The notes under the pieces were generated by a model. It had not been told where the DNA came from, searched no databases, and saw only the letters and a program-made list of their open reading frames with translations. A program made the translations under genes and the position numbers. Of a stretch of 64,000 bases of DNA, positions 3,823-19,925 are shown one piece after another (within the stretch, counting starts at the first letter, position 1; every line of letters begins with the position of its first letter). The DNA is from an uncultured Gammaproteobacteria bacterium (GTDB lineage Bacteria; Pseudomonadota; Gammaproteobacteria; GCA-002705445; GCA-002716945): NCBI GenBank assembly GCA_902535975.1, contig CACAVP010000004.1:1719-65718 (forward strand), given 5' to 3'.

Positions 3823-5537
3823 AGAGATTCAATCAAATGTAATCTCTTCTGATAGTCATTACATTTAAGAATAGCATTTATTTTTATTTTGAGTGCTTTG
3901 GTATCAGATTGCATTATAAGATTTTTAATCTCAGGAATTGCTTGTGGGTGCATGCTAAAGGATGTCAGACCAAGACCCAACAGAAGTTTAGTATACATCT
4001 TCTCACCTGCCATCTCACCACACACAGTGACGTCTATTTTTGATTTATCGCATGTCTCGATAACTTGTTTTATCAATTGCAGCACAGCTGGGTTTGTTGG
4101 ATCATATAAACTTGTTACCTCATCATCAATTCTATCGATAGCAAGAATATACTGAACAAGATCATTAGTCCCAATTGACATAAAATCAACGTGTTTTGAT
4201 AGTACATTTGACTGAATTGCACTTGCGGGTACTTCAATCATAATACCAACTTCATATTTATGACTGAAAGATTTTTTCTCTTTGATAAGTTCAACTCTAG
4301 CCTCGTCTATTAGTTCTTTCGCTTGATTAATCTCGTCAAGCGTCGTGATCATTGGAATTAATATTCTAAGCCTCCCATTTTTTGCAGCTCTCAACATTGC
4401 CTTGATTTGGACTTTAAAAAGATTTTTTTCATACAAGCTATATCTAATACCTCTTAAGCCTAGCGCGGGATTTTTCACGATTTGGCCAACTTTCATATTT
4501 TCTGATACTTCTTTATCAGAGCCAATATCTAGCGTCCTTAGTGTTACAGGCTTATCTTTTACTTTATTAAAAACTTTGCTGTAAGCTTGGAATTGTTCTT
4601 GTTCCGTAGGTAAATCATTTCGATTCATATATAGATACTCGGTTCTAAACAAACCTACTCCATCAGAACTATCATTTAAAAGCTTTACTTCTTCTGAAAG
4701 CTCAAGATTACACATTACATCTATTTTTATTCTATCCTTGGTAACCGCTTTCTTGTTTGTTGTTTTTTTAAAAGATTTTATTAATGAGTTATTTTCTGAT
4801 TGAATTTTTTTGAAATGCATTAGTTCAATTTCATCAGGATTAACTATGATTATTTGGTTCTCTGGATCCATAATCAGTTTATCGCCATTTTTAATGATAT
4901 TGATTGAAGATTCTACCTTTACTAACATAGGAAGAGCTAAACTTTTGCTCAAGATCGCGCTATGAGAAGAACGACTTCCATGTGATGTTATAACCCCTAG
5001 ACCCTTGCTGTGATGAATATCAATAATATCCTTAGGTGTGATTTCATCAGTTATAATTATTTTATTTTTGATATTATCATTACTGAAAATATCCAATTCT
5101 TTTCTAGACTGAATAAGTTCTAATAGACTGATAATCATTTGTTTAATATCAATTAACCTCTCTTTGATGTATTTGTCTTCAATGTCCTCGAAGGACTTTT
5201 TCATACTGTAGTACTCAGAGGATATAGCCCAACTTGCACTAAATTGATGCTTATTAATTTTTTTAAGAACACTCTCTCTGAAACTTTTATCATCAACAAA
5301 ACTTAGTTGCATATTCATCAGTTTTGTTATCGCAGGATTATTTTTGATTTTTGAGGATGATTTTTTATATTCTGTTTTAAGTTTATTTATTACATCTAAA
5401 CATTTTTTTGCTTCCTTTCTAACCTGATTCTTACTTACAAAAGATGGTGCTTGATCAATATTATCCTTATATATGACGATTGCTTGACCAATGCATATGC
5501 CACGTGAAACACCATCACCTGTGATAATAATACTCAT
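3819..5537 (-). CDS. ptsI: PEP-protein phosphotransferase (PTS Enzyme I), with no N-terminal GAF domain
   Basis: The 572-aa product has the phospho-His region GVITSHGSRSSHSAILSKSLALP. Other EI motifs are GLFRTEYLYM, NPALGLRGIR, MIEVP, SIGTNDLVQY and CGEMAG. It overlaps the upstream HPr gene by 4 nt. Confidence 0.9.
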   Translation of the reverse strand: MSIIITGDGVSRGICIGQAIVIYKDNIDQAPSFVSKNQVRKEAKKCLDVINKLKTEYKKSSSKIKNNPAITKLMNMQLSFVDDKSFRESVLKKINKHQFSASWAISSEYYSMKKSFEDIEDKYIKERLIDIKQMIISLLELIQSRKELDIFSNDNIKNKIIITDEITPKDIIDIHHSKGLGVITSHGSRSSHSAILSKSLALPMLVKVESSINIIKNGDKLIMDPENQIIIVNPDEIELMHFKKIQSENNSLIKSFKKTTNKKAVTKDRIKIDVMCNLELSEEVKLLNDSSDGVGLFRTEYLYMNRNDLPTEQEQFQAYSKVFNKVKDKPVTLRTLDIGSDKEVSENMKVGQIVKNPALGLRGIRYSLYEKNLFKVQIKAMLRAAKNGRLRILIPMITTLDEINQAKELIDEARVELIKEKKSFSHKYEVGIMIEVPASAIQSNVLSKHVDFMSIGTNDLVQYILAIDRIDDEVTSLYDPTNPAVLQLIKQVIETCDKSKIDVTVCGEMAGEKMYTKLLLGLGLTSFSMHPQAIPEIKNLIMQSDTKALKIKINAILKCNDYQKRLHLIESL

Positions 5538-5803
5538 TTTTGTTCATCAAATTTATTGTTAAATAGTTTCTCAATTGATTTCATTGCATCCTTTTGATCA
5601 GCACCATCAACCTCAATACATATTCTTGAACCTTGAGAGGCCGATAACATAAGTAGCTTCATTATACTTCTAGCATCAGCATTTTTTCCATCCTTAGTGA
5701 TTATGATTGTCGATTCAAACTCATTTGCTATTGATACAACTTTAGCTGCAGCTCTGGCGTGAAGTCCTAATTTATTTAGAATCGTAAGCTTTTTTGTGAT
5801 CAT
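5534..5803 (-). CDS. ptsO: HPr-family phosphocarrier (NPr-like)
   Basis: The 89-aa product has the His15 motif NKLGLHARAA and a Ser46-like region DARSIMKLL. It lies in the rpoN-ptsN operon. Confidence 0.85.
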   Translation of the reverse strand: MITKKLTILNKLGLHARAAAKVVSIANEFESTIIITKDGKNADARSIMKLLMLSASQGSRICIEVDGADQKDAMKSIEKLFNNKFDEQK

Positions 5804-6184
5804 CTATATTTTTGAAACCCCTTGAATGCCACCTTCTAGAGCCTTGATTGATAGTTGATCAAGTGTCTTCTCAGGATAGTTGAATACATTGAGAATCATA
5901 GAAAGGTTCAATCCTGCAACAACTTTTATTTTGCCATGATTTATCGAGGACGCGATATTAGATGGAGTAGTTCCAATAATGTCTGTCAATACTAGAACAC
6001 CTGCTCCATTATCAAGGAATTTCACATATTTTTCTGCAAGCTCTTTTACATCATTTGGCTGATCATAATTGTCAACAGACAACAACTCAACTTGAAATGG
6101 ATTTTTTCCAAAGACTGAGGTTGCAGTCAGTAATAATTGTTTTCCAATGTCACTGTGTGTCACTAATAAAATACCAACTTTCAT
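5804..6184 (-). CDS. PTS EIIA component, mannose/fructose (EIIA-Man) family
   Basis: I moved the start to ATG 6184 (MKVGILLVTHSDIGKQLL...), which has the active-site His in the VTHS context typical of EIIA-Man. There is no EIIB, EIIC or EIID gene nearby. Confidence 0.75.
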   Translation of the reverse strand: MKVGILLVTHSDIGKQLLLTATSVFGKNPFQVELLSVDNYDQPNDVKELAEKYVKFLDNGAGVLVLTDIIGTTPSNIASSINHGKIKVVAGLNLSMILNVFNYPEKTLDQLSIKALEGGIQGVSKI

Positions 6185-6185
6185 A

Positions 6186-6644
6186 TTAGATATACTCCAA
6201 GTCATCCGATTGAAAATTATTTATAATTTGAGAACTATTTCTTGCTTGTCTTAATTCTTTTCTTACAGAGGAATTATCAAGCTTGCTGCTCAAACAAGCT
6301 AGTAACTCTAGATGATCATTGTAATTTTTTTCAGGAACAATAATAGAGACAATTATATCTACATCTAGGCTATCTATGTTATCAAATTCCACTGGCTCAT
6401 CCAATATTATAATTGATAGGAATGGGTATTCGATATCCTCAATTCGTGCATGAGGTATCGCAACTCCTTTCCCAATAGATGTTGAACCCAGTTTCTCTCG
6501 CTCATAAAGCTTTTTAAAAATATGATCTCTACTCACACCTGATGGCCTACTTAGGAGATCAGAAATTTTTTCCAATATACTTTTTTTTGTCTTACAGCTA
6601 TCATTCACAGATACATGCGAGTCGTCTAATTTGATTTTAATCAT
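6186..6644 (-). CDS. ptsN: Nitrogen-regulatory PTS EIIA(Ntr)
   Basis: The 152-aa product has the motif GKGVAIPHARIE. It lies immediately downstream of rpoN with an 8-nt overlap. Confidence 0.85.
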   Translation of the reverse strand: MIKIKLDDSHVSVNDSCKTKKSILEKISDLLSRPSGVSRDHIFKKLYEREKLGSTSIGKGVAIPHARIEDIEYPFLSIIILDEPVEFDNIDSLDVDIIVSIIVPEKNYNDHLELLACLSSKLDNSSVRKELRQARNSSQIINNFQSDDLEYI

Positions 6645-7968
6645 CAGTATTTTTTTTTCTCTGCGTTGAATTTGGTATATTTATTCTCTCTCTATATTTT
6701 GTAATTGTTCGTCTTGCCACAGAAACGCCTTTCGCCGTAAAATATTTTGAAATCTCATTATCACTCAAAGGCTTATTTATATTTTCTTCTTTTATGCACT
6801 CTTCAATCATCTTCATAATCACTTTTGATGAGATCATTTTTCCAGTATCAGTAAAAAGTTCAGATGAGAAAAAATATTTTAATTCAAATACTCCTCTTGG
6901 AGTTTGAACAAATTTGTTACTTGTAGCCCTAGACACAGTTGACTCATGAATACCAAGGGACTCAGCAATATCTTTTAGTGTCATTGGTTTCATACCAATA
7001 TCACCATTATTCAGAAAATTTATTTGTCTTTTAAAAATTTCTTTGCATACATTGAGTATTGTTATGCTTCTATTTTTGATAGATTTAATAATGAATTTTG
7101 CCTCATTATAATTTTTCCGAAGGTAATTTAAATCGGTCTTAATCTTGCTCTGTCTCATTAATGAGACATATTCTGCATTTAACTTTAATAATGGTTTATT
7201 TTTGACTAGTTCAGTTACCCATTTACCGTCTCTTTTAAAGATAATTATTTCAGGTGAAATATGATAGGAATCCAATTTTTTTGACACCTCGAGACCAGGT
7301 TTAGGGTTGAGCTTTTTAATAAGCCCAAGTGCGTTCTCATCAAAATCACTACTTTTGTTAAGCTCTGATAAAATGTTACTAAATTTCGAACTATCAATTT
7401 TTTTTAAATGTTGAATTATTTCTGTTGCTTTCTCATATAAGGGTGATTCCTTATATGAGTGATCTAACTGTATGGATAATGAGTCACATAAATCTATTGC
7501 ACATGTTCCAATAGGATCAAATCTCTGAAGAGTGTGCAATACATAAAATATTTCCTGAAACGAGACTTCGATTTCCCTATTGGCCTGAATAAAAATATCT
7601 TTGAGATCTTCTGTTAAATACCCATTATCATTTACACAATCGATTAGTATAGAGGCGATTATTTTTTCATTTACTGAAAATGAAGACATATCTACCTGTC
7701 TATTCAGAGACTCCTGTAAGCTCTCACTCTTTTTATGATATTTTAGAATATCATCAGCGTCTACATTAAGCGCATTGATCAATGATCCTTCATCATAATT
7801 AGATTCGACCTCCTCATCTTTTTCTAAAAGTGGATTTTCTAAAATTAAACTATCTACCTCTTTTTCAAGATCATACGAATTTAGCTGAAGAAGCCTAATA
7901 GCTTGTCTTGTCTGTTGAGATAAGACCTTCCTCTGAGATAATGTTGTTGTTTGTTTTAATTTATTCAC
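6637..7968 (-). CDS. rpoN: RNA polymerase sigma-54 factor
   Basis: The 443-aa product has an N-terminal Q/L-rich region, the HTH LKDIAESLGIHESTVSRA and the RpoN box ARRTITKYRE. Confidence 0.95.
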   Translation of the reverse strand: MNKLKQTTTLSQRKVLSQQTRQAIRLLQLNSYDLEKEVDSLILENPLLEKDEEVESNYDEGSLINALNVDADDILKYHKKSESLQESLNRQVDMSSFSVNEKIIASILIDCVNDNGYLTEDLKDIFIQANREIEVSFQEIFYVLHTLQRFDPIGTCAIDLCDSLSIQLDHSYKESPLYEKATEIIQHLKKIDSSKFSNILSELNKSSDFDENALGLIKKLNPKPGLEVSKKLDSYHISPEIIIFKRDGKWVTELVKNKPLLKLNAEYVSLMRQSKIKTDLNYLRKNYNEAKFIIKSIKNRSITILNVCKEIFKRQINFLNNGDIGMKPMTLKDIAESLGIHESTVSRATSNKFVQTPRGVFELKYFFSSELFTDTGKMISSKVIMKMIEECIKEENINKPLSDNEISKYFTAKGVSVARRTITKYRERINIPNSTQRKKNTDD

Positions 7969-8690
7969 AATTTAAAAGATTCACCTAAATAGACTTTCTT
8001 GACAATTTCATTTTTGACCAGATCCTTAGACTTTCCAGATGCCAGAACTTTACCTGAATTGATAACGTATGATTTATCACATATTTTTAGTGTCTCCCTG
8101 ACATTATGATCGGTAATTAATATTCCTATATCTTCTTTTGCGAGCAGTTTAATAATTTTCTGTATATCTAGTACGGATATTGGATCAATCCCTGCAAATG
8201 GCTCATCAAGTAAAAGGAACTTTGGTTTTAGTGCTAATGCCCTTGCGATTTCAACTCTTCTTCGCTCTCCTCCCGACAATTGAATACCTTTAGTGTTGAT
8301 GAATTTACTTAAATCAAATTTTTCCACTAGATGTTCAAGAATGTCGGATTTTTCTGTTCTACTAAGACTTTTATCAACTTCAAGAATTGCTTCAATATTA
8401 TCTTTTGCTGTCATGTCTCTGAATACTGAAGGCTCTTGTGGTAGATAGCTGATACCTTGTTCAAATCTTTTATGAATTGGCTCGAAAGTGATATTCTCAT
8501 CATTGATGTGAATGCTTCCTTCATCTGATTTCACCAAACCAACTATCATATAGAATGTTGTAGTTTTGCCAGCACCGTTTGGACCTAAAAGGCCTACAAT
8601 CTCTCCAGAGTTGACTTCAAGTGAAACATCATGAACGACTGTCTTACTTTCAAACGATTTTTTTAGACCAACTGATATAAGTGTAGACAT
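7965..8690 (-). CDS. lptB: LPS export ABC transporter ATPase
   Basis: The 241-aa product has Walker A GPNGAGKTT, the signature LSGGERRR and Walker B LLLDEP. Its position between lptC/A and rpoN is conserved. Confidence 0.95.
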   Translation of the reverse strand: MSTLISVGLKKSFESKTVVHDVSLEVNSGEIVGLLGPNGAGKTTTFYMIVGLVKSDEGSIHINDENITFEPIHKRFEQGISYLPQEPSVFRDMTAKDNIEAILEVDKSLSRTEKSDILEHLVEKFDLSKFINTKGIQLSGGERRRVEIARALALKPKFLLLDEPFAGIDPISVLDIQKIIKLLAKEDIGILITDHNVRETLKICDKSYVINSGKVLASGKSKDLVKNEIVKKVYLGESFKL

Positions 8691-8691
8691 A

Positions 8692-9360
8692 TTAATTCAA
8701 ATTGAAAGTAGTTGTTACTTTATTTTTTATACTTTTTTTCAAGTTACTTGCAGGCTTATTTTTAACAATCCACTCGTCAGTTTTAGTATTATATATCATT
8801 TGATTACCTTTTATCTTCTGCAACTGATCACCCTCTCTGACTGTCCTTTCTGCATCACTTAATATTGTAATTAGGCCTATATCAAGATCGGCAGATAAGC
8901 CATTTCCTGTTGTAGTTGAATCAGATGTTATTATTGTTACATCCTGATCTGTCTCAATTAAGTCCTTCGATAGGTAAAATATAGCATATGATGTATATAA
9001 TTTTATGACATTACCATTGGAAGAGTTTTTTCTATTTACTGAGACATTGCTTTTCAGATATATCTCACTCATTTCCCCAGTAGGATCAATAGCTGTTTCA
9101 GAGCTTATATTAGTTATCAAATTAGTATTAAACATTTTTAATTTTGGATTTTTTATAAATGTATAGTTGTCATCATACTTTTCCAAATATAATCCAGCCA
9201 AACTCCATTTAGTTGACATATCAGTATCTATATTTTTTGATGAGAAGTTGTGTATCTTATTTTTTAATTTTCTCTGTTCAGTTACGTCACTCGCCAGCAC
9301 ATATAAATTAGTAGTTAGCAACAGACAGAAAAAACAATAAATTAAATTAAACTTTTTCAT
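8692..9360 (-). CDS. OstA-like LPS-transport periplasmic protein: LptC-like body with an LptA-like C-terminal tail
   Basis: I moved the start to ATG 9360 (MKKFNLIYCFFCLLLTTNLYVLA..., an anchor or signal peptide). The LptC-like core includes IYLKSNVSV and DVTIITSDSTTTGNGLSADLDIGLITILSD. The tail IKGNQMIYNTKTDEW...NKVTTTF resembles the E. coli LptA C-terminus as I remember it. It is the only gene between kdsC and lptB. Confidence 0.65.
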   Translation of the reverse strand: MKKFNLIYCFFCLLLTTNLYVLASDVTEQRKLKNKIHNFSSKNIDTDMSTKWSLAGLYLEKYDDNYTFIKNPKLKMFNTNLITNISSETAIDPTGEMSEIYLKSNVSVNRKNSSNGNVIKLYTSYAIFYLSKDLIETDQDVTIITSDSTTTGNGLSADLDIGLITILSDAERTVREGDQLQKIKGNQMIYNTKTDEWIVKNKPASNLKKSIKNKVTTTFNLN

Positions 9361-9886
9361 TGAGTGTCTTTGAGAAATATATGAGATCACATACATCTCT
9401 TATTGCCCCATAACCACCATGCCTTTTAGTTACCCAATCGAATTTTTTGATATCGATTGTAGGATTAGTATTTGGAACTACCACTGACATCCCAACGCTA
9501 CTAAGAATTTCAACATCCACTGTATCATCCCCAACAAAACATACTTTTTCTAGAGGAATAGATATCTTCTGATCATAAAACGACTTAAGTTTATTCCTGC
9601 TGCCCTGAATAACATACTTGATATCTAATTCCTTTGCACGGTGATTCACAGACGCAGATTGTCTTCCTGAGATAATCATTATTTCTATTCCTATTGACTG
9701 AAGTATTTTTATGCCATGGCCATCTTGAGCAAAAAACTTCTTGAGTTCATTGCCTTCATGATCATAATATAGCCCACCATCTGTTAGCACCCCATCTACA
9801 TCAAAAGCTAGTAACTCTATCTGTTTAGCTTTTTTTATTAAATCATCAGGATAATTTGATTTTAAAAAATTTTGATCTCTAGTCAT
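9347..9886 (-). CDS. kdsC: 3-deoxy-D-manno-octulosonate 8-phosphate phosphatase (HAD family)
   Basis: The 179-aa product has the HAD motif I FDVDGVLTDG and the C-terminal motif GDDTVD. Its kdsD-kdsC position is conserved. Confidence 0.9.
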   Translation of the reverse strand: MTRDQNFLKSNYPDDLIKKAKQIELLAFDVDGVLTDGGLYYDHEGNELKKFFAQDGHGIKILQSIGIEIMIISGRQSASVNHRAKELDIKYVIQGSRNKLKSFYDQKISIPLEKVCFVGDDTVDVEILSSVGMSVVVPNTNPTIDIKKFDWVTKRHGGYGAIRDVCDLIYFSKTLNEKV

Positions 9887-9887
9887 G

Positions 9888-10850
9888 TTAGTTAATTGAT
9901 TTGATTATATCTTTGAGCGTGAGTATTCCTATTACTTTATTTTTATCGACGACTGGTAAAGCATTTATACTATTATCCTCCATTACAGAGAGCGCTTCTG
10001 CGGCTAACATGGTAGGACCTACTATGACAGGTGTTTTGGTCATTACTGATTTAATCTCAATAGATTCAGAACTTTTATTTTCTTTCATGATTCTTTTAAT
10101 GTCACCATCAGAAATAACACCTATCAATTTTTTTTTGTCGTCTATTATTATCGCTAGACCAAGATTACATTTTGATGTTTTTTCTAGCAATTTTGAAAAC
10201 TTCGAGCTTATGCTTATAATTGGTATATTTTTCTTTATCATTATGTTCGAAACAGTCACCATTAACCTTTTTCCTAATGCACCTTCTGGATGAGTTTTTG
10301 CAAAATCCTTTATTGTAAAGTTATTCTGAGAGGAAATTGCTAATGCTAGGGCATCTGATATAGCCAGAGCACAAATGATACTGGATGTAGGTGCTAAATT
10401 ATGTGGACATGCTTCTCTTGTGACTGATGCATCAAGAGAAATTTTAGAGTACCGAGCTAAAGATGAAGATAAATTGCCAGTTATTGATATTATGCAGCAC
10501 TTCAATAATTTCAACAAAGGTAATAGTTTAATAATTTCTTGAGTTTCGCCTGAATTAGAATAGATTATAACTATGTCATTCTTTTTTATTACTCCAACAT
10601 CTCCATGCAGAGCATCCAGTGGATGAAGAAATAGTGCTGCAGTACCTGTGCTACTTAATGTAGCTGCCATCTTCATTGCAATAAAACTAGATTTCCCGAC
10701 ACCTAATGTGATTACTTTACCCTTATTTAATAGAATAGCTTCACACGCTCTCTCAAAATTACTGTCTAATAATTTAGCTGTTCTTTTAAGTGCAGCAATT
10801 TCTCTGTTTAAGATGTCCTTAGCGAGCTGTGTATTTGATTTTTTATTCAT
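9888..10850 (-). CDS. kdsD: Arabinose-5-phosphate isomerase (SIS plus tandem CBS domains)
   Basis: The 320-aa product has the SIS motifs GVGKSSFIAMKMAATLSSTG and YSNSGET, followed by C-terminal CBS repeats. Confidence 0.9.
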   Translation of the reverse strand: MNKKSNTQLAKDILNREIAALKRTAKLLDSNFERACEAILLNKGKVITLGVGKSSFIAMKMAATLSSTGTAALFLHPLDALHGDVGVIKKNDIVIIYSNSGETQEIIKLLPLLKLLKCCIISITGNLSSSLARYSKISLDASVTREACPHNLAPTSSIICALAISDALALAISSQNNFTIKDFAKTHPEGALGKRLMVTVSNIMIKKNIPIISISSKFSKLLEKTSKCNLGLAIIIDDKKKLIGVISDGDIKRIMKENKSSESIEIKSVMTKTPVIVGPTMLAAEALSVMEDNSINALPVVDKNKVIGILTLKDIIKSIN

Positions 10851-10852
10851 AT

Positions 10853-11788
10853 CTACTGAAATATAAAAAATATATATACGATGTATGTTATTACTAATAT
10901 GCTGGAGTATAAAGTTTTTATGAGTGTTTTATCAGATTTAATTATTATGAAGAAAAAAATAGACACTATCAGTAAAAGTACAATATCTCTAATAAATTCT
11001 GTTTCGTTTACAACAGCTGAATTTATAAGTCCTGCTAGACTTGCTGCGATTGCTATATTGAAAATATTTGAACCAATTATGTTACCTATGATGAAGTCAG
11101 TTCTACCTTTTCTAGCGGACTGAATACTGGTTGCAAGTTCAGGCAGACTAGTTCCCAATGCTGTGAGCGTTAATCCAATAGTATAGCTACTTATACCAAA
11201 GAGAACTGCTACTTGAGTTGCTCCATCAATAAAATAAATTGAACCATAAATTAACATTAAAAATCCAGATATCGACAATAGACTAATCCTTAGTACACTT
11301 AATTTCTTAGAATTTTCTTCATGGTATAAATCTGTGTGATGCTCTTCTTTGTCTAAGAAAAATAATATTACTAAAAATACTATAAGCAAGATTAGCGCAT
11401 CAATAGCATCAAATAAATTATCAAACAAAATAAGTATAAATAAACTTAACGTCAAGATAATCATACCAGTGTATATATTTTTAGGTAAAACCATCACTCT
11501 ATCTTTTTGTTTAATAAAAAAAACAGATAAACAAAAAACCAGAGCAATATTAGATATATTCGAACCAATTGAATTACCAATAGCAATGATAGCCTTATTT
11601 TGAAGAGCAGACTCAATGGAAATAAATATTTCAGGTGCAGATGTTGCAACGCCGATCATAAAAAAACTAGCAATCAATCCGGAGATTGAATATGCAGACG
11701 AAAATCGCTCAGTTGCTGTGACTAGTAGATTTGATCCAAATAATAGTAGCGCCAATCCCAGAACTAAAAATAATGCGGATCCTATCAT
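10853..11788 (-). CDS. yrbG: Ca2+/Na+ antiporter family (CaCA) inner-membrane protein
   Basis: The 311-aa polytopic product has duplicated alpha-repeat motifs (GVATSAPEIF... and GTSLPELATS...GNIIGSNIFN). It sits at the same position as E. coli yrbG, upstream of kdsD. Confidence 0.8.
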   Translation of the reverse strand: MIGSALFLVLGLALLLFGSNLLVTATERFSSAYSISGLIASFFMIGVATSAPEIFISIESALQNKAIIAIGNSIGSNISNIALVFCLSVFFIKQKDRVMVLPKNIYTGMIILTLSLFILILFDNLFDAIDALILLIVFLVILFFLDKEEHHTDLYHEENSKKLSVLRISLLSISGFLMLIYGSIYFIDGATQVAVLFGISSYTIGLTLTALGTSLPELATSIQSARKGRTDFIIGNIIGSNIFNIAIAASLAGLINSAVVNETEFIRDIVLLLIVSIFFFIIIKSDKTLIKTLYSSILVITYIVYIFFIFQ

Positions 11789-11821
11789 GATAGATCGATG
11801 TTAAATGAAATATCTCTGGAT

Positions 11822-12583
11822 TTAATAATTGATTTCAAGAACGTCAATTTCAAAGTCTTGCACGTCTTTGCCATCGGAAACCATTTTTGCTCTTCTCTGC
11901 AGATATGATTCTCTCAAAAAGATATATTTATCTTTGGCAGCTGTATCCAGAATTTTTGTAGCTTTAAGTAGATTCGCCCTTGTATCGATTACATTAGTTG
12001 CTTGAATCGCTTGCCTCTCTTCATGATGTAACTCAGTATGAATAGGTGAAATATCTTTTTCTATCATCACATCAACATAGAAGCCCGGGGCATCTCTAAA
12101 AGAGCTTGGTCCAAAAAAAGGTAAAACTAGATATGGACCAGGTGAGAATCCGTAGTATCCCAGTGTTTGACCGAAATCTTCGCGATGTCTTTGTATGCCC
12201 AGAGTGGTCGCAACATCAAATAAGCCTAAAACTCCAACAGATGAGTTGATAACAAATCTGCTCGTTGATGATATGGTTTTATCGAGTTTCATTTGCAGTG
12301 CACTGTTTATAATTGTGTTGATCTCTCCAAGATTGTTAAAAAAATTACTTACACTATCCTCAACGGGATCAGGTGTGATAAATCTGTAACCCTCAGCTAC
12401 TGGCTCTAGGATGTTATCATCTACCACTTCATTGAAGCCGAAAATGACCCTATTCATAGGCTCTAGGGGATCGTCTTCTGATGCATGTGAAGGGCTTACG
12501 CTCAATAATACGACTAGAGTAATTACAAGTGCTTGCTGCATAGTTGAAAATATAAAAGATTTATTTGATTTACCCTGTAACAT
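11822..12583 (-). CDS. mlaA: MlaA/VacJ-family outer-membrane lipid-asymmetry protein, without a lipobox cysteine
   Basis: The product has DPLEPMNRVIFGFNEVVDDNILEPVAEGYRFITP and the conserved block GPYLVLPFFGPSSFRD. The N-terminal signal ends ...SPSHA/SED and has no Cys. An alternative start is ATG 12541 (MQQALV...). Confidence 0.8.
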   Translation of the reverse strand: MLQGKSNKSFIFSTMQQALVITLVVLLSVSPSHASEDDPLEPMNRVIFGFNEVVDDNILEPVAEGYRFITPDPVEDSVSNFFNNLGEINTIINSALQMKLDKTISSTSRFVINSSVGVLGLFDVATTLGIQRHREDFGQTLGYYGFSPGPYLVLPFFGPSSFRDAPGFYVDVMIEKDISPIHTELHHEERQAIQATNVIDTRANLLKATKILDTAAKDKYIFLRESYLQRRAKMVSDGKDVQDFEIDVLEINY

Positions 12584-12613
12584 AATTGTTGATTATATAC
12601 TAAAATAGACCTC

Positions 12614-13195
12614 ATGATTAAAAAAACATCACTTTTGCTGGCATTTTTATTAATTACAAATGTTGCGTTTTCAAATGATACGCCTGATGGATTTTTAAAA
12701 GATTCTGTTGAAGAGATTTCTCTTCTTGTTAGCAAATATAAAGATAGATTTGAGAATGATGAGGAATTTCTTAGAGATAAAATGAATTCATCTGTAATGC
12801 CAAAACTTGACATTAAACTTATGTCAAAAATTATACTCGGTAAAAAAATATGGACAAACTTAACAACAAGCCAAAAAGACGACTTCGTTGAAGCATTTAA
12901 ATATAGGATGACTAGTACATATATGAAATCTATCACAGCATTCGATGGAGAAAAGGTCGTTTTTTTGCCTTATGAGCCAGGTAAAAAAGAAAATATCGCG
13001 TATGTAAAGTCAAAGTATTTAATTCCTGGAGGGGACATTGCCGTTGATTACAGATTGATAAAAAAAACTGATGGTTGGAAAGTTTATGATATTATTTTTG
13101 ATGGTATAAGCCTGATGAAAAATTACAGAGCAGACTTTCGAGAACATATATCACAAAGTGGCATTGACTCATTAATAACCTCGCTCAAGGAATAG
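12614..13195 (+). CDS. mlaC: MlaC/Ttg2D-family periplasmic phospholipid-binding protein
   Basis: The 193-aa product has the signal peptide MIKKTSLLLAFLLITNVAFS. Family pattern: LDIKLMSKIILGKKIW..LT..QK.DF..AF, then WKVYDIIFDGISLMKNYRADF. Confidence 0.8.
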   Translation: MIKKTSLLLAFLLITNVAFSNDTPDGFLKDSVEEISLLVSKYKDRFENDEEFLRDKMNSSVMPKLDIKLMSKIILGKKIWTNLTTSQKDDFVEAFKYRMTSTYMKSITAFDGEKVVFLPYEPGKKENIAYVKSKYLIPGGDIAVDYRLIKKTDGWKVYDIIFDGISLMKNYRADFREHISQSGIDSLITSLKE

Positions 13196-13204
13196 CAAGT
13201 TTCA

Positions 13205-15658
13205 CTAAAGAGGTTTCATAGAAATTAGTAACCTAGGGAGTAAAGTTAGCACCAGTAGAAGTGCTACAAGCATTGCGAGTCCTGTTAAAGTCCCAAATAT
13301 GATTGTTGGTATGAAATTTGACAGGATAAGAATAGAGAAACCAAATATCACTGTAATACCTGTAAAGAATATTGCTCTTCCGATGCTTGAATGACATATT
13401 TTTACTGTATCTTCATAAGTCTCAACGCTTTGAAATTCCTCTTTAAAGCGATATAAGTAGTGAATACTATTATCTACCGCAATTCCAACCGTAATTGCAG
13501 CGATTGTGATAGTCATCATATCTAATGGTAAATTTATAATGCCCATTATTCCAAGAACTAGCAGTGCAGATAGAAGATTAGGAATTATACCGATAACCAT
13601 TAGCTTGAAAGATCTGAATAATATTAAAAACATTGATGCAATAATAAGCATCACAAAGCCAAGAGATTTTATTTGAGAATCAAATAGGCTTTGAAGCATA
13701 TTGTTGTAGAGCAATAGTATTCCAGTGATTGTTATAGTCTCTGATTTGAGATAAGCATCATTTGTAAGATCAGTCCTAATCTTTTCAATAAGATCAGCCC
13801 GTCTCAAATTTTGATTTGAATCCAATATTCTTACATTAATTCTTGCCTCGTTATCTTTGATAGATAAGTATGGATTCACCGCAATATCCTTTACTTCTGC
13901 GGGGAGTTGTTTGTAAAGAAGGGACATCTCTAGACTATTAAGTTCTTTATCATCATTGACAATTTCAGCAACTCGTATTGATGAAGCGAGAGATAAAACT
14001 TTACCTATATACTCATTATCATTTAGATAATCATGCACATACTTAATTTTGTTAATTTTTTCAGTTGTAAACCAATTCGACTCATTCGACTCCTCAGTAT
14101 CTCCTAATAATTCATTAAACTCCTCCTCATCCTCGCTAGCTTCGGAGTCAGGAAATTTTATTATAATATCCATTGGTGTAGTTCCACCCAGTTGATTATC
14201 AATGAGCTTCATGCCCTTGTGTATTTCAGTGTCTGACCTGAAATAATTAATAAAGCTATTCTCAACTTTGAGATGAGTTAAGCCATATAAAGTGATGACA
14301 GATATCACAGCAACAATAGCATAAATATGTTTACCAAACTTAAGTGCAACATTTGATAGTGAATCAACAATGTAACTTTTTGTTTGTTCATTGTTTACAA
14401 TAGAATTATCATTATTTGAGAAAAGTAGTATAAAACAGGGCAGTAACGTGAATGAAGTTAAAAATAACGAAGTAAGACCTATGACCATCATATAACCAAA
14501 ATCTATAACAGGCTTGATATCACTAAATACTAATGATGCAAAGGCCACTATAGTTGTAAGCGCAGTATATAAGCATGGCCATATCATTTTCTTTGTGGTT
14601 TCATGGATTGAATAAAACTTATCACCATCTCCTGAAGAGAAAATCTGTCTGTACCTGACGATTATGTGAATGTTCATGGATAAAGTAAGAATCAACATTA
14701 GCGAGATGAAATTAGATGATATTACTGTTACTTTCCAGTCCAAATATCCAAGTAATCCAATCATGAACAATACAGCATAAAGGCAATTAACTATTGGCGC
14801 TGTAACCCAAATAAACTTTCTAAAGATTATAACTAAAGTAACAAGAATAAATAAAAGAACCCCGAAACCAAAGTTTATTAAATCATTTTTTATGAAAGTA
14901 ATCATGTCATCAGTGATCATTGGAATTCCACCCAACCTTATTTCATATCTATCATCTGAATAAGAGCTTTGAACTTTTCGGATTTCTTCAATCAAAAGTT
15001 TTATCTTTAGTTTTTCTTTCTCAGCCAGATTTTGATATTTGATTTTTGCTAATGAATACTGGTTCTCAAAACTTTGATCTTCTCTATATTTTTCAAAAAG
15101 TAAATTCCTTTGCTTTAATGCATTTAGCAAGCTCTCGTTTTTTTTGATTACAAGCTGCATAGCAGTGGTTTTAGCATCAGAACTAATGATCAGATCTTTA
15201 TATATCGGACTTGTGAGTATTTCCTCTTTAGCACGACTTCTATCTATATCTGCACTTAGAATATTTGGAATATCATTTATCAATTCAGTAAGTGGCTTTT
15301 CAGAACTTGTTACTAAAGGAATATTTGTTATGGATGTAACAGAATCTATATTCTCAATTGTTCTTATTTCTTTAGAAAGTGTATCTATCAATCGAAGCGT
15401 ATCAGAAGAAAATATATTTTTGTTTTTATCAGTGAGAGTCAAGATCATGAAATCTGATGACTGATATCTTTCAGATACATCACGAAAAATTTTTAGATCG
15501 CGGTCATCTTCCAGGATGAGCGTGTCCGCGGATGCATCTAATGTAAAATTTTTAATATTAATTGCGGATATCGCGAGTATAATAGCTAAAAAAAATAGTA
15601 CTATAACTGGATGACCAAGTAAGTATTGCCCATAAATAGATGATATTTTTTTAATCAT
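13205..15658 (-). CDS. RND-superfamily exporter, MMPL/COG1033 (HpnN-like) type
   Basis: The 817-aa product has an N-terminal TM helix and a ~230-aa soluble loop, then a hydrophobic block at about aa 250-420. A second soluble loop is followed by a second hydrophobic block at about aa 640-815. This is the 2x(1+5 TM) RND architecture. It is convergent with mlaC across a 9-bp gap and divergent from murA. Confidence 0.8.
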   Translation of the reverse strand: MIKKISSIYGQYLLGHPVIVLFFLAIILAISAINIKNFTLDASADTLILEDDRDLKIFRDVSERYQSSDFMILTLTDKNKNIFSSDTLRLIDTLSKEIRTIENIDSVTSITNIPLVTSSEKPLTELINDIPNILSADIDRSRAKEEILTSPIYKDLIISSDAKTTAMQLVIKKNESLLNALKQRNLLFEKYREDQSFENQYSLAKIKYQNLAEKEKLKIKLLIEEIRKVQSSYSDDRYEIRLGGIPMITDDMITFIKNDLINFGFGVLLFILVTLVIIFRKFIWVTAPIVNCLYAVLFMIGLLGYLDWKVTVISSNFISLMLILTLSMNIHIIVRYRQIFSSGDGDKFYSIHETTKKMIWPCLYTALTTIVAFASLVFSDIKPVIDFGYMMVIGLTSLFLTSFTLLPCFILLFSNNDNSIVNNEQTKSYIVDSLSNVALKFGKHIYAIVAVISVITLYGLTHLKVENSFINYFRSDTEIHKGMKLIDNQLGGTTPMDIIIKFPDSEASEDEEEFNELLGDTEESNESNWFTTEKINKIKYVHDYLNDNEYIGKVLSLASSIRVAEIVNDDKELNSLEMSLLYKQLPAEVKDIAVNPYLSIKDNEARINVRILDSNQNLRRADLIEKIRTDLTNDAYLKSETITITGILLLYNNMLQSLFDSQIKSLGFVMLIIASMFLILFRSFKLMVIGIIPNLLSALLVLGIMGIINLPLDMMTITIAAITVGIAVDNSIHYLYRFKEEFQSVETYEDTVKICHSSIGRAIFFTGITVIFGFSILILSNFIPTIIFGTLTGLAMLVALLLVLTLLPRLLISMKPL

Positions 15659-15711
15659 AGCATTATTGAGTATAAACTTTTAAAATACCGAAACAAACTT
15701 AAAAAATATCT

Positions 15712-16971
15712 ATGGATAAACTATTAATAGATGGGCAACAACCACTATCTGGCTCAGTTAGAATTTCTGGGGCAAAGAACTCTGTCCTACCTATGTTATG
15801 TGCCTCAGTAATGGTTTCTGATGGCCAAGTTGAACTTGAGAATGTTCCTCATCTTCAAGACGTCACCACCACAACGAGACTATTAACTCAAATGGGCATC
15901 AGTGTCACTATGGACGAGTTTATGGATATTAGTTTGGATCCATCAACTATTCATAATTTATATGCACCTTATGAACTTGTAAAAACAATGCGATCCTCAA
16001 TTCTTGTTCTTGGTCCACTATTGGCTAAGTATGGCGAGGCCAAAGTGTCTTTACCTGGCGGATGTGCGATTGGAATGAGACCAGTCGATATGCACTTAGA
16101 TGCTCTCCAAAGGATGGGAGCAAGCGTGTCTGTTGAGAATGGTTACATTACAGCAAAGGTGAAAAAATTAAAAGGTGCTGAGATTATTTTCCCGCGTAAG
16201 TCTGTAACTGGAACGGAGAATATTATTATGGCTGCAACGCTGGCAAAAGGTACAACTACAATTAAAAATGCTGCCAGTGAGCCTGAGATCTCAGATTTGT
16301 GTCTCTTTTTAAATAAAATGGGGGCTAAAGTAAGTGGCTTTGGTAGTGATGAAGTTACAATTCATGGCGTGAATTCGCTCAAGGGTACTAGACATAAACC
16401 ATTGCCTGACAGAATTGAAGCTGGGACATTTATGGTGGCGGCGGCAATTACACGAGGTGACATCGAAATAAATAATATTGTACCTGAGCATAGTAGAGCT
16501 GTCATAGACAAACTGATCCAGTCAGGTGCTGAGATAAAAATACTTAAAGATTCTGTTAGGGTAAAGATGAAAAAAAGACCAAAGGCGATAAACATTGAAA
16601 CGAATGCATATCCTTTTTTTCCCACAGATATGCAAGCTCAAATGACCGCATTAAATTGCATTGCAGACGGAGACAGCTCTGTGAAAGAAAATATTTTTGA
16701 AAATAGATTTATGCATGCACAAGAACTCGTAAGAATGGGAGCAAAAATAAGAGTTCATGACAATATTGCAGAGATATCTGGTAGCAAAGAGTTACTCGGT
16801 GCACCTGTCATGGCAACTGATCTGAGGGCTTCTGCGAGTTTAATTTTAGCAGGTCTTGCTGCAAAAGGTACGACAGAGATTGGTCGGGTTTATCATATCG
16901 ATAGAGGGTATGACTGTATTGAAGAAAAACTTCAGTTAATTGGTGCTAGGATTTCAAGAAAACCTATGTAA
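15712..16971 (+). CDS. murA: UDP-N-acetylglucosamine 1-carboxyvinyltransferase
   Basis: The 419-aa product has ISGAKNSVLPML, the active-site Cys in LPGGCAIGMRPVD, and HIDRGY near the C-terminus. Confidence 0.95.
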   Translation: MDKLLIDGQQPLSGSVRISGAKNSVLPMLCASVMVSDGQVELENVPHLQDVTTTTRLLTQMGISVTMDEFMDISLDPSTIHNLYAPYELVKTMRSSILVLGPLLAKYGEAKVSLPGGCAIGMRPVDMHLDALQRMGASVSVENGYITAKVKKLKGAEIIFPRKSVTGTENIIMAATLAKGTTTIKNAASEPEISDLCLFLNKMGAKVSGFGSDEVTIHGVNSLKGTRHKPLPDRIEAGTFMVAAAITRGDIEINNIVPEHSRAVIDKLIQSGAEIKILKDSVRVKMKKRPKAINIETNAYPFFPTDMQAQMTALNCIADGDSSVKENIFENRFMHAQELVRMGAKIRVHDNIAEISGSKELLGAPVMATDLRASASLILAGLAAKGTTEIGRVYHIDRGYDCIEEKLQLIGARISRKPM

Positions 16972-16982
16972 AATGCATATCC

Positions 16983-17591
16983 ATGATTAGATTAGCTATA
17001 TCCAAAGGAAGAATCTTAGAGGAAGCGGTAAAGATACTCGAAAAAGTGAATATTTTGTGCCAAGTAGACCCCTTGAATACTCGTAAGTTGATTATTCCCA
17101 CAAATATAGACAATTTAGAGGTAATTGTTGTTAAAGCTTCTGACGTGCCAGTATATATTGACTCCGGAAAAATTGATCTAGGAATTGTCGGTGTAGACAC
17201 CTTGATGGAAGATGATAAGAACAATCATTTTCGCTTGTGTGACATGACTATCTCAAAATGTAAATTAGTTGTAGCTGGAAAGGCTAAAACCAAATATTTC
17301 AACAATATGAAAGTTGCTACAAAATACCCAAATATTGCGAAAAAATATTTTGAGCATGTTGGTCTTCAGTGTTCAATTTTAGAATTGTATGGCTCAATTG
17401 AATTAGCTCCCGTTTTAGGATTATCTGATTTTATTGTTGATATTGTGGAGACCGGAAAGACACTAAAAGAGAACGGGCTAAGAGAGCATGATATGATAGC
17501 AAATGTATCATCTTTATTAATAGCAAATAAAGTCTCCTATAAACTCAAAAGAAAAGAAATTGAATCAATTATCGGTAGAATAAAATTATGA
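16983..17591 (+). CDS. hisG: ATP phosphoribosyltransferase, short form
   Basis: The 202-aa product starts MIRLAISKGRILEEA and has DLGIVG.D, ATKYPNIAKKYF and DIVETGKTLKENGL. It lacks the C-terminal regulatory domain. Confidence 0.9.
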   Translation: MIRLAISKGRILEEAVKILEKVNILCQVDPLNTRKLIIPTNIDNLEVIVVKASDVPVYIDSGKIDLGIVGVDTLMEDDKNNHFRLCDMTISKCKLVVAGKAKTKYFNNMKVATKYPNIAKKYFEHVGLQCSILELYGSIELAPVLGLSDFIVDIVETGKTLKENGLREHDMIANVSSLLIANKVSYKLKRKEIESIIGRIKL

Positions 17592-18646
17592 AAAATAAAA
17601 CTGATGATCTTCGGATAATTAATACCCAAGAGCTTATTAGCCCGCGGGAGATAATTGATTCTATTTCACCATCGGAAAAAGGATTTGCTACTATTATTAA
17701 CGCTCGGAATCAGATAAAAAATATTCTTAGTAAATCAATTAATAAATTTATGATCATTGTTGGCCCATGCTCAATCCATGATGTAGACGCAGCCATAGAG
17801 TATGCAACTAGATTAAAAAATCTCTCATCTTCACTATCAAGTAATTGTTTGGTAGTTATGAGAGTTTATTTTGAAAAACCAAGAACAGTAATAGGTTGGA
17901 AGGGCCTAATAAATGATCCTGATCTAGATGGATCTTTTAAAATTAATAAGGGAATAAGAATAGCAAGGAAGTTGTTAATAGATTTAGCTGAAATGGAGAT
18001 ACCATGCGGGCACGAATTTTTAGACTTAGTCAGCCCACAGTATGTATCTGATCTCATAAGTTGGGGTGCAATAGGAGCAAGAACAACCGAGAGCCAGAGC
18101 CATAGAGAGTTAGCCTCAGGTTTATCATGTCCGGTAGGTTTTAAAAATGGTACAGATGGAAGTTTACAAATAGCAATTGATGCTATGAATGCCGCCAGAC
18201 ACTCACACAGCTTTTTATCTGTCACAAAGGAAGGAAAATCGGCAATATTTAATACCGCAGGAAATGAGGATTGCCACATAATACATAGAGGAGGCAACAA
18301 TAAATCTAATTTTGGATCAGAAGATGTGAAAAATTCTGTCAGAATATTGGAGCAAAATGGTATGAAGCCAAACGTAATGATTGACGCAAGCCATGCTAAC
18401 AGCAATAAAGATTTTAAAATGCAATCTAAAGTCGTTGATGATGTTAAAAATCAACTGCTATCAGGAGAGAAAAATATAATTGGCATTATGCTTGAAAGTA
18501 ATCTAGTAGAGGGAAACCAAAAAATTAGTAGCAGAGATAATCTCAAATATGGTCAAAGTATAACCGATTCATGCATTGGGTGGGAAGAAACAGAAAATAT
18601 TATTTTGGATTTAGATGATACACTCAAAAAAGCCTATGAAAATTAA
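17588..18646 (+). CDS. 3-deoxy-7-phosphoheptulonate (DAHP) synthase, class I
   Basis: The 352-aa product has DLRIINTQELISP, IVGPCSIHD, RVYFEKPRT..GWKGLINDP and GARTTESQSHRELASG. Its start overlaps the hisG stop (ATGA) and its end overlaps the hisD start. Confidence 0.9.
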   Translation: MKNKTDDLRIINTQELISPREIIDSISPSEKGFATIINARNQIKNILSKSINKFMIIVGPCSIHDVDAAIEYATRLKNLSSSLSSNCLVVMRVYFEKPRTVIGWKGLINDPDLDGSFKINKGIRIARKLLIDLAEMEIPCGHEFLDLVSPQYVSDLISWGAIGARTTESQSHRELASGLSCPVGFKNGTDGSLQIAIDAMNAARHSHSFLSVTKEGKSAIFNTAGNEDCHIIHRGGNNKSNFGSEDVKNSVRILEQNGMKPNVMIDASHANSNKDFKMQSKVVDDVKNQLLSGEKNIIGIMLESNLVEGNQKISSRDNLKYGQSITDSCIGWEETENIILDLDDTLKKAYEN

Positions 18647-19925
18647 ACTACTAAATACATCTCAAGCTAATTTCAACAGGAGGCTAAATGATCATTTATC
18701 TTTAAAACAGGAGAACTTCGAGTCTGTCGAGAAGACAGTAGATAAAATTTTGAAAATAATTGAAGATAATGGAGATAGCGGCTTAAGGCTATTAATTAAG
18801 AAATACGATAAGACCTCTTATACAAAAATTTCTGATTCTATAGTCACTAAAGAGGAAATCAGTGAGGCATACTCAAAAACACCAAAGAATATCATAGTAA
18901 ATCTGAGAAAAGCTATGCGCAACATAAAAGCTTTTTCAAAACAACAAAAACTTAAAAGTTGGTCTATTAGAGTTAAAGGATCAAAATTAGGAGAAAAAGT
19001 TACACCGATAAATACTGTAGGGATCTATGTTCCGGGAGGTAAGGCAAGCTATCCGTCAACTGTTTTGATGAATGCCATCCCTGCACAAGTTGCGGGAGTA
19101 AAGGATATCATAATGGTCTGCCCACCCTTAGCAGGAAAACTAAATCCACTTGTATTGATTGCGGCTGATTTGTGTGGTGTGAATAAAATTTATAAATTCG
19201 GGGGCGCGCATGCCATTGCTGCCCTTGCTTTTGGCACCGAGACTATCAAACCAGTTGATAAAATTGTTGGACCAGGGAATATTTATGTTGCGACTGCAAA
19301 AAAGAAGGTTTACGGGAGAGTTGGGATAGACAGTTTTGCAGGCCCATCAGAGGTTTTGATTATTGCAGATCAAAACGCAAACCCTGAACTAGTTACAATT
19401 GATATGTTTGCCCAAGCCGAACATGACGAACTAGCACAAGCGATACTCTTGACGTCAAGTAAGAAGCTAATAAATTCTGTCAGTTTAAAAATTAGTAGCT
19501 TAATAAGAAATCAACCTAGAAAAAAGATTATTGATAAATCTCTTAGCACTAGAGGTTTATTTATCAAAGTTAAAAACATAAAAGAAATTATAAGTATCGC
19601 AAATCGAATTGCTCCCGAACATTTAGAAATATTTGGTTATGAAGAGATGAAATTAGAGACAAAAATCGATAATGCTGGTGCTATATTCATAGGAAAAAAT
19701 AGCCCTGAAGTTTTTGGGGACTATTGCGCCGGACCTAATCATGTCTTACCGACCAGTGGGTCAGCTAAGTACGCTTCGCCTCTTGGTGTTTATGATTTTT
19801 TAAAAAGAACCAGCTTAATGAAGATATCCTCATCTCACTCCAGAGAACTATCGAGTACAGCATCATTGTTGGCAGACTGTGAGGGATTAACTGCGCATTC
19901 TCAATCAGCTAAGCTCAGAAAATAA
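18636..19925 (+). CDS. hisD: Histidinol dehydrogenase
   Basis: I moved the start to ATG 18636 (MKIKLLNTS...). Motifs are YVPGGKASYPSTVLM, AGPSEVLIIAD, QAEHDE and GDYCAGPNHVLPT. Confidence 0.9.
   Translation: MKIKLLNTSQANFNRRLNDHLSLKQENFESVEKTVDKILKIIEDNGDSGLRLLIKKYDKTSYTKISDSIVTKEEISEAYSKTPKNIIVNLRKAMRNIKAFSKQQKLKSWSIRVKGSKLGEKVTPINTVGIYVPGGKASYPSTVLMNAIPAQVAGVKDIIMVCPPLAGKLNPLVLIAADLCGVNKIYKFGGAHAIAALAFGTETIKPVDKIVGPGNIYVATAKKKVYGRVGIDSFAGPSEVLIIADQNANPELVTIDMFAQAEHDELAQAILLTSSKKLINSVSLKISSLIRNQPRKKIIDKSLSTRGLFIKVKNIKEIISIANRIAPEHLEIFGYEEMKLETKIDNAGAIFIGKNSPEVFGDYCAGPNHVLPTSGSAKYASPLGVYDFLKRTSLMKISSSHSRELSSTASLLADCEGLTAHSQSAKLRK

Follow-up and report, generated by a model that had tools for sequence, protein, structure and literature searches.

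A lipid-type RND transporter gene at the mla locus of an uncultured marine gammaproteobacterium: a candidate proton-driven partner for MlaA and MlaC

[quoted passage not shown] In Campylobacter jejuni, mlaA (Cj1371), mlaC (Cj1372) and a gene for an RND-superfamily transporter (Cj1373) are organized in one operon in which the mlaC and RND genes overlap; a 2026 preprint proposes that the RND protein drives transport, probably anterograde, of phospholipids or lysophospholipids, with MlaEFD encoded at a separate locus (bioRxiv 10.64898/2026.08.28.747810). A 2025 preprint names the MlaC-like HpnM and the MlaA-like HpnS as candidate partners of the hopanoid RND transporter HpnN, and reports that squalene-hopene cyclase (SHC) is absent from the Campylobacterota (PMC12324291). 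RND transporters of the HAE3 family are otherwise almost uncharacterised, the known members being HpnN and the monoterpene pump AmeD (PMC6394551). Here, we describe a locus on a 64,000-nucleotide stretch of DNA from an uncultured gammaproteobacterium (contig CACAVP010000004.1, positions 1,719 to 65,718; this whole stretch is referred to as the window), at which homologues of mlaA and mlaC are neighbored by an RND gene at the chromosomal site of the Escherichia coli mla operon. Given the C. jejuni precedent, the idea of an MlaA-MlaC-RND system is not new; the system at this locus is an RND-paired MlaA/MlaC shuttle, a kind that has been recognized recently and so far only proposed, and the window adds a real further example of it, from an abundant marine lineage. 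What appears to be new is the replacement of mlaFED by an RND gene in its own slot. Our literature search found no paper describing an RND gene in the gammaproteobacterial mlaFED slot, and nothing on Mla in SAR86, SAR11 or SUP05, the supplementary tables of a SAR86 isolate paper included. The grouping of HpnN with HpnM and VacJ-like proteins, which the first-pass annotation of this DNA had given as a partial precedent, does exist, and the two preprints have since built on it.

Three intact open reading frames (ORFs), encoding the MlaA homologue, the MlaC homologue and the RND protein, lie between yrbG and murA, the same interval that holds mlaFEDCB-ibaG in E. coli. Profile hidden Markov model (HMM) searches upheld the three family calls and the coordinates given to them in the first-pass annotation. 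The locus is laid out as follows.

10853-11788, minus strand: yrbG, Na+/Ca2+ exchanger family (PF01699; tblastn with E. coli YrbG, E 7e-27); synteny anchor outside the module
11822-12583, minus strand: mlaA/vacJ homologue, 253 aa (PF04333 MlaA, 249.8 bits, E 2e-74)
12614-13195, plus strand: mlaC homologue, 193 aa (PF05494 MlaC, 142.8 bits, E 1e-41)
13205-15658, minus strand: RND-superfamily transporter, predicted MMPL/HAE3-like lipid type, 817 aa (PF03176 MMPL, 119 bits in two stretches)
15712-16971, plus strand: murA (PF00275; tblastn with E. coli MurA, 51% identity, E 1e-134); synteny anchor outside the module

The strands of the mlaA, mlaC and RND genes alternate (minus, plus, minus), and the trio therefore cannot be a single operon but constitutes three separate transcription units. 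The mlaA gene, 33 nt upstream of yrbG, heads the minus-strand string yrbG-kdsD-kdsC-lptC-lptB-rpoN, and the mlaC and RND genes each stand alone. The mlaC gene retains its ancestral orientation relative to yrbG and murA and is separated by 30 nt from the divergent mlaA and by 9 nt from the convergent RND gene; the RND gene is divergent from murA (53 nt). These intergenic distances are so short that no small gene can be hidden around the trio. Promoter and terminator consensus scanning of positions 11500-16000 yielded counts equal to the shuffled expectation for this AT-rich DNA (GC content of the window, 33-34%) and was uninformative on transcription units, and Rfam and tRNA scans detected tRNA-Leu and tRNA-Met only, both distant from the locus, and no regulatory RNA.

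The gene map against which the first-pass annotation had read the locus matches the E. coli K-12 record, in which murA-ibaG-mlaBCDEF is divergent from yrbG-kdsD-kdsC-lptC-lptA-lptB-rpoN-hpf-ptsN-rapZ-npr. The further claim that the window reproduces this map is correct in part: nine genes (yrbG, kdsD, kdsC, lptB, rpoN, ptsN, npr, mlaC and murA) were recovered in E. coli order and orientation by tblastn with the E. coli proteins, but lptA, hpf and rapZ are missing. The same searches returned no match for MlaB, MlaD, MlaE, IbaG, LptA, Hpf or RapZ in the 64-kb window, and the E. coli MlaF query matched LptB alone. A Pfam survey of essentially all window ORFs, read directly or via identical genes on the contigs of relatives, detected no MCE, MlaE, STAS or squalene-hopene cyclase domain. 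By tblastn and Pfam alike, the window is thus devoid of genes for MlaD, MlaE, MlaF and MlaB, as had been supposed from the sequence at first reading.

The AlphaFold2 model of the RND protein, built on 109 homologues, is of high confidence (pLDDT 91.2, pTM 0.88) and possesses the 12 transmembrane (TM) helices and two periplasmic domains that had been anticipated, the latter spanning residues ~38-244 and ~461-646, with a helical hairpin at ~175-233. A Foldseek search of this model against the PDB placed only MmpL5/4/3, HpnN and NPC1/NCR1/NPC1L1, all of them RND proteins that handle lipids, among the top 50 matches (TM-scores, 0.62-0.72; identities, 11-14%). Among solved structures, HpnN is the closest in sequence, with the alignment restricted to the TM bundles. 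The best NCBIfam model is HAE3 (TIGR00921), for which the score of 168.9 bits is under the cut-off of 351.9, and the protein therefore represents a distinct branch. The candidate identity as HpnN itself was rejected, the scores being far under both curated cut-offs (TIGR03480, 113.4 bits against 751.85; NF052374, 74.2 bits against 1100). An AcrB-type HAE1/HME pump or SecDF was likewise ruled out by the Foldseek matches, by SecD and SecF scores of at most 39 bits for cut-offs of at least 148, and by the absence of any ACR_tran Pfam match; assignment to these drug, metal or SecDF families had been named in the first-pass annotation as a finding that would speak against its proposal, and Pfam, NCBIfam and Foldseek all place the protein elsewhere. 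Judged from its sequence and its predicted fold, the protein is a lipid-type transporter resembling MmpL, HpnN and NPC1. Residues D729, H733 and Tyr734 (Y734) on TM10 and H331 on TM4 are shared by 90% or more of the 109 aligned homologues, a pattern compatible with a proton relay, though no proof of one. The protein has 3,397 homologue clusters at E <=1e-30 in a 50%-identity library.

The MlaC homologue possesses a signal peptide, with predicted cleavage between VAFS and NDT, and clears the PF05494 cut-off of 26 bits. Against the NCBIfam models it falls below both the HpnM cut-off (TIGR03481, 72.9 bits against 160.1) and the MlaC cut-off (57.1 bits against 195), and its PDB sequence matches are 11hy and 2qgu, followed by E. 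coli MlaC. These features identify it as a predicted periplasmic lipid carrier of the MlaC family. It is 79% identical to the MlaC of a relative with a 73%-identical RND protein, and the MlaA of the same relative matches that of the window at E 1e-140.

The MlaA homologue aligns over its full length with the solved MlaA chains 5nuo, 5nuq and 8i8r (E 5e-30 to 1e-26) and exceeds the PF04333 cut-off of 25 bits. Its 127 bits on the NCBIfam MlaA equivalog model are below the cut-off of 375, which marks it as a divergent member of the family. As first noted, it carries a signal peptide but no lipobox Cys; a signal-peptidase-I site is predicted between SHA and SEDD, and the protein is thus not the lipoprotein that the canonical Mla pathway calls for. 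N-terminal comparison showed the Cys to be absent also from the MlaA of locus L001 (13074-13835; cleavage between AKA and S), a relative at 73% RND identity, and to be retained in the sister-lineage locus L005 (13139-13882; ‘ISSC’) and in other phyla, indicating a recent loss within the clade. A Gram-negative porin gene (495-1586, minus strand; Porin_4, E 7.5e-17) is situated 10 kb from mlaA; the E. coli MlaA protein forms its working complex with two porins, OmpC and OmpF.

To what extent the arrangement is conserved can be read at three depths. The relatives at 72-93% RND identity are all uncultured marine bacteria, and the same gene order is retained across 22 kb on long-read contigs (up to 1.04 Mb in length) encoding a 73%-identical RND protein (L001-L003). 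The closest lineage beyond these, L005 (58% RND identity), possesses the same alternating-strand arrangement as the window. At greater distance, an RND profile was scanned against one genome per GTDB species; 80 loci of ~20 kb at 42-58% identity were returned, and the ORFs called in them were searched by phmmer and iterated HMMs. About 46 of the 80 belong to SAR11. Among the ~34 others, 21 encode MlaC on one side or the other of the RND gene, a few hundred bases away at most, and nine of these encode MlaA there as well. The linkage of this RND gene to mlaC and mlaA is hence conserved. The first-pass annotation would have abandoned its proposal upon finding a complete mlaFEDB operon elsewhere in the genome together with no conserved linkage; given the conserved linkage, that combination can no longer arise.

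The slot replacement proved to be more widespread than the first-pass annotation had claimed for a single genome. Ten other gammaproteobacterial lineages encode the RND protein immediately upstream of mlaC on the same strand, followed by ibaG (in most) and murA, with kdsD or yrbG divergent on the opposite side; they include an Acidiferrobacteraceae metagenome-assembled genome (MAG), Thiotrichaceae UBA973, a SUP05/Thioglobus MAG and several MAGs with contigs of up to 3.9 Mb. In all ten, the RND gene occupies the exact mlaFED position, no ORF capable of encoding MlaB is present between mlaC and ibaG, and there is no room for mlaFED. Extra small ORFs at these loci encode a glutaredoxin and a protein with a weak DUF72 match; the latter, sought as an additional conserved partner, is positioned upstream of the RND gene in three gammaproteobacterial loci. 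Outside this group, the gene order is MlaA-MlaC-RND in Nitrospirota and Thermodesulfobacteriota and MlaC-RND-MlaA in Planctomycetota and Desulfobacterales, and one deltaproteobacterial MAG carries RND-MlaC with MlaA on the opposite strand. At least four distinct orders in at least four phyla are thus represented, mostly on one strand with short gaps (apparent 4-nt overlaps are a longest-ORF artefact, and these genes are described here as closely spaced on the same strand). The adjacency of the trio, found in several gene orders and in no fewer than four phyla, is far beyond chance. The first-pass annotation treated the clustering as a single module, which in the window is divided among three transcription units. 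A homologue of MlaD or MlaE was detected in none of 84 loci of ~20 kb; the MlaE motif is variable, reading LSSM in E. coli and IDAL in others. In nine non-proteobacterial loci, the trio has no other recurring neighbor family, and no recurring hpn or shc gene.

Quick neighbor-joining trees without support values were constructed for the RND and MlaC proteins. The MlaC tree follows taxonomy: MlaC proteins of the window and of the slot lineages cluster with E. coli MlaC and with the two proteobacterial-looking structures 11hy and 2qgu, and separately from the RND-linked MlaC proteins of non-proteobacterial lineages. This fits an ancestral mlaC that stayed at its site through an exchange of its inner-membrane partner, and the pattern does not fit the import of a foreign three-gene cassette. 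In the RND tree, the slot Gammaproteobacteria fall together, as do the proteins of the non-proteobacterial operon type, and the window clade groups with SAR11 proteins. The last grouping could reflect horizontal transfer among streamlined marine bacteria, or an attraction caused by low-GC composition. In SAR11 (Pelagibacteraceae), the gene for a 47-51% identical orthologue of the RND protein has a fixed housekeeping context, rplI-dnaB-RND-cvpA-purF, which lacks MlaC and MlaA, as represented by the following loci.

RND gene at ~10001-12380: SAR11 loci L016, L020, L021, L023, L025, L034, L048 and ~40 more

Taken together, these observations suggest that MlaA, MlaC and the RND protein form a functionally linked intermembrane lipid route, in which MlaC would have the RND protein as its energised partner in the inner membrane; we assign this reading a probability of roughly 0.6. 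The link is suggested by the recurrence of the adjacency in multiple gene orders and phyla, by the positional replacement of mlaFED with loss of mlaB, and by the fold that the RND protein shares with lipid movers. MlaA would provide the outer-membrane component and MlaC the soluble carrier in the periplasm, and the RND protein would fill the role of E. coli MlaFEDB, drawing on the proton motive force in place of ATP. Lipid would be handed over directly between the RND protein and MlaC, and protons may be coupled through the conserved Asp and His of TM10 and the His of TM4. The cargo may be of phospholipid type, and both cargo and direction are ones that we infer. MmpL3 and HpnN, both bacterial lipid RND proteins, extract lipid from the inner membrane outward; for this reason we lean, weakly, toward export from the inner membrane via MlaC to MlaA and the outer membrane. 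As the NPC1 type shows, an RND protein can also receive its lipid from a carrier in solution, and retrograde transport is nearly as probable. A stronger version, that the RND protein has fully displaced MlaFEDB in this ~1-Mb lineage and in the slot lineages (SUP05/Thioglobus, Acidiferrobacteraceae, Thiotrichaceae and others), leaving MlaC traffic dependent on the proton motive force only, is held tentatively and at less than even odds.

Several points weigh against a functional link. The alternating strands preclude co-transcription of the trio in the window, and both literature precedents for RND-MlaC coupling are themselves hypotheses. In SAR11, in Marinobacter and Kangiella and in several alphaproteobacterial MAGs, the RND family is also represented with neither MlaC nor MlaA next to it; an MlaC neighbor is therefore not required, and the protein may have a function independent of MlaC. 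The ten slot loci may have arisen from one or a few rearrangements and not from ten independent events. Lastly, MlaFEDB could be encoded elsewhere in the genome, as MlaEFD is in C. jejuni, and a possibility to be taken seriously, if tentatively, is that the RND protein was added to the Mla pathway as a second arm: with a complete mlaFED(B) at another locus, MlaC and MlaA would serve an ATP-driven retrograde arm and a probably anterograde RND arm, and no swap of energy source would have occurred. The RND homologues of Marinobacter and Kangiella fit this account, in that such ordinary Gammaproteobacteria would be expected to carry mlaFEDCB. So does C. jejuni, in which the trio forms an operon and yet MlaEFD is kept (bioRxiv 10.64898/2026.08.28.747810). 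The account must, however, explain why mlaFED and mlaB are gone from a strongly conserved site at which mlaC is still present, in the window as in the ten gammaproteobacterial lineages, and relocation of the ABC transporter genes and mlaB with mlaC left behind is less parsimonious than their loss. The ~1-Mb genome of the lineage and the lack of MlaD and MlaE homologues at all 84 loci also argue against it, as do the very few ABC transporters of SAR86, if the lineage belongs there; SAR86 relies instead on transport driven by the proton motive force (PMC3358033).

The remaining explanations dispense with the pairing or with its proposed cargo. It is unlikely, though by some way the most probable of these, that the RND protein and MlaC have no functional link, the former being an HAE3 exporter of hydrophobes or solvents like AmeD, or a mover of some other envelope lipid, and MlaC and MlaA being left over from a degraded Mla pathway and working passively or with a different partner. 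The separate transcription units of the trio, the frequent occurrence of the RND family apart from MlaC, exemplified by the SAR11 context, and the fact that AmeD, a monoterpene-tolerance pump, is one of only two characterised HAE3 members (PMC6394551) can be cited for it, but the adjacency recurs in varied orders in four phyla or more, both MlaC and MlaA are intact, with the conservation given above, and the DUF1302/DUF1329-type partners with which AmeD-type pumps pair are absent here. An ordinary hopanoid export set of HpnN, HpnM and HpnS, with the biosynthesis genes elsewhere in the genome, would match the proposed composition of that set (PMC12324291), the slightly better score of the window MlaC on the HpnM model than on the E. 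coli-type MlaC model and the standing of HpnN as the closest solved structure to the RND protein by sequence. We nevertheless consider it very improbable: the RND and HpnM scores fall far short of their cut-offs, the alignment to HpnN is limited to the TM bundles at 12-14% identity, no squalene-hopene cyclase or hpn gene is found in the 64-kb window or recurs in nine other trio loci, mlaC sits at the canonical mla site, and the trio is present in Campylobacterota, a phylum reported to be without SHC (PMC12324291). Scarcely more probable is nutritional lipid import, in which captured lipids would pass via MlaA and MlaC to the RND protein and into the inner membrane for beta-oxidation, by analogy to the transfer of cholesterol from NPC2 to NPC1. 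NPC1-type proteins are among the structural matches of the RND protein, and SAR86, again if the lineage belongs there, specialises in lipid catabolism (PMC11582366, PMC3358033); however, the trio or the pair is also found in chemoautotrophs and anaerobes of different lifestyle (SUP05, Acidiferrobacteraceae, Nitrospirota, Desulfobacterota), and its neighbors in the window are genes of envelope biogenesis (kds, lpt, murA) and not of catabolism.

The presence of MlaA and MlaC beside a lipid-type RND protein across phyla, together with the slot replacement, provides comparative evidence that coupling of the periplasmic shuttle to a proton-driven pump is possible. A hypothesis previously confined to C. 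jejuni and the hopanoid producers is thereby extended to abundant ocean bacteria, including the marine lineage of the window and SUP05, and the small genomes encountered here would offer a clean test of an RND-only Mla pathway. Should full displacement hold true, the locus would be a case in nature of an RND protein taking over from a non-orthologous ABC/MCE machine, with MlaA and MlaC as adaptors that are agnostic to the energy source, and would provide a minimal system in which to settle the direction of Mla-type transport, possibly the bulk anterograde export of phospholipids.

Apart from the trio, the surroundings of the locus display several peculiarities. The lptA gene is absent from its usual slot between lptC (8692-9396, minus strand) and lptB (7965-8690, minus strand), the 234-aa LptC ORF abutting lptB, and no LptA/OstA-like sequence was detected by tblastn in the 64 kb. 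Relatives at 73% RND identity share this layout; at locus L054, two ORFs of 174 and 188 aa are present there. The rpoN-linked PTS-Ntr cluster (3819-6644, minus strand) departs from that of E. coli in the absence of hpf and rapZ: an EIIA-Man-type gene (5804-6205) sits between ptsN (6186-6644) and npr (5534-5803), all on the minus strand, and npr is followed by an Enzyme I/PtsP-like gene (3819-5537, minus strand). On the plus strand downstream of murA (16983-19925), hisG and hisD have between them a gene for DAHP synthase (17588-18646), which overlaps hisD by ~30 nt as judged by the longest-ORF call. A 233-aa ORF between ftsH and folP (33861-34562, plus strand) has no Pfam match, nor does its counterpart on the contig of a relative (L085, 11969-12670). 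The remaining ORFs of the window are housekeeping in nature and encode a porin, arginine and histidine biosynthesis (arg and his genes), cytochrome bc1, carAB, ftsH, the nuo operon, nusA-infB and pnp.

Five genes that are intact in the window (yrbG, TP_methylase, cytochrome c1, GST and carB) appear split into two or three pieces on ‘pilon’-polished long-read ENA contigs of relatives, at the sites below; these are most likely leftover frameshift errors and not pseudogenes.

L002, 13869-14803: split gene
L003, 626-1449 and 2131-2952: split genes
L085, 1626-2504 and 4353-7595: split genes

Among the known systems with which the locus can be compared, the most remote is the eukaryotic NPC2/NPC1 pair, in which a carrier in solution hands sterol to a membrane protein of the RND fold. 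The likeness lies in the exchange of lipid between an RND-fold protein and a small soluble carrier, and NPC1-type proteins are among the fold matches; the pair differs in the unrelated fold of its carrier, in its sterol cargo and in transport into the membrane, and homology is confined to the RND core. Mycobacterial MmpL3/4/5, exporters of lipids and siderophores, provide the best structural matches (TM-scores of 0.64-0.71), with PF03176, 12 TM helices and two periplasmic domains in common, and the periplasmic coiled-coil insertion of MmpL4 and MmpL5 resembles the hairpin at residues 175-233 of the window RND protein. They differ in sequence (12-14% identity), in their partners MmpS and AcpM and in the mycomembrane envelope that they serve. 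AmeABCD of Castellaniella defragrans (PMC6394551) and BstABC of Methylococcus (PMC11713862) likewise couple HAE3/MmpL-like RND proteins for hydrophobic cargo to dedicated periplasmic and outer-membrane partners, but these partners come from unrelated families, being DUF1302, LolA-like and COG4447 proteins for the monoterpenes of Ame and PhnD-like and TatT-like proteins for the sterols of Bst.

Nearer in composition is HpnN-HpnM-HpnS, in which an HAE3-type RND protein (HpnN structures 5KHN and 6WU0) is combined with a periplasmic protein of the MlaC family and an outer-membrane protein of the MlaA family; the window differs from it in RND and MlaC scores under the model cut-offs, in the low identity to HpnN, in the lack of shc or hpn linkage and in the location at the canonical mla site. 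The E. coli Mla system (MlaA-OmpC/F, MlaC, MlaFEDB) shares homologous MlaA and MlaC proteins and the neighborhood yrbG-kdsD-kdsC-lptC-lptB-rpoN-ptsN-npr and murA, but the window has no MlaD, MlaE, MlaF, MlaB or IbaG, at the locus or in the 64 kb, and an RND gene in their place; its MlaA is no lipoprotein, and its energy source would be the proton motive force, not ATP. C. jejuni Cj1371-1373 presents MlaA, MlaC and an MmpL-like RND protein side by side in a phylum without hopanoid synthesis, a likeness that consists in component families and adjacency. There the genes form a single operon and MlaEFD is encoded elsewhere, whereas the window has three units on alternating strands, with the trio at the ancestral mlaFEDCB site. 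The model proposed for C. jejuni, in which MlaC receives lipid from a lipid/H+ RND transporter and would deliver it to MlaA and the outer membrane, expresses the same idea as the favored reading of the window.

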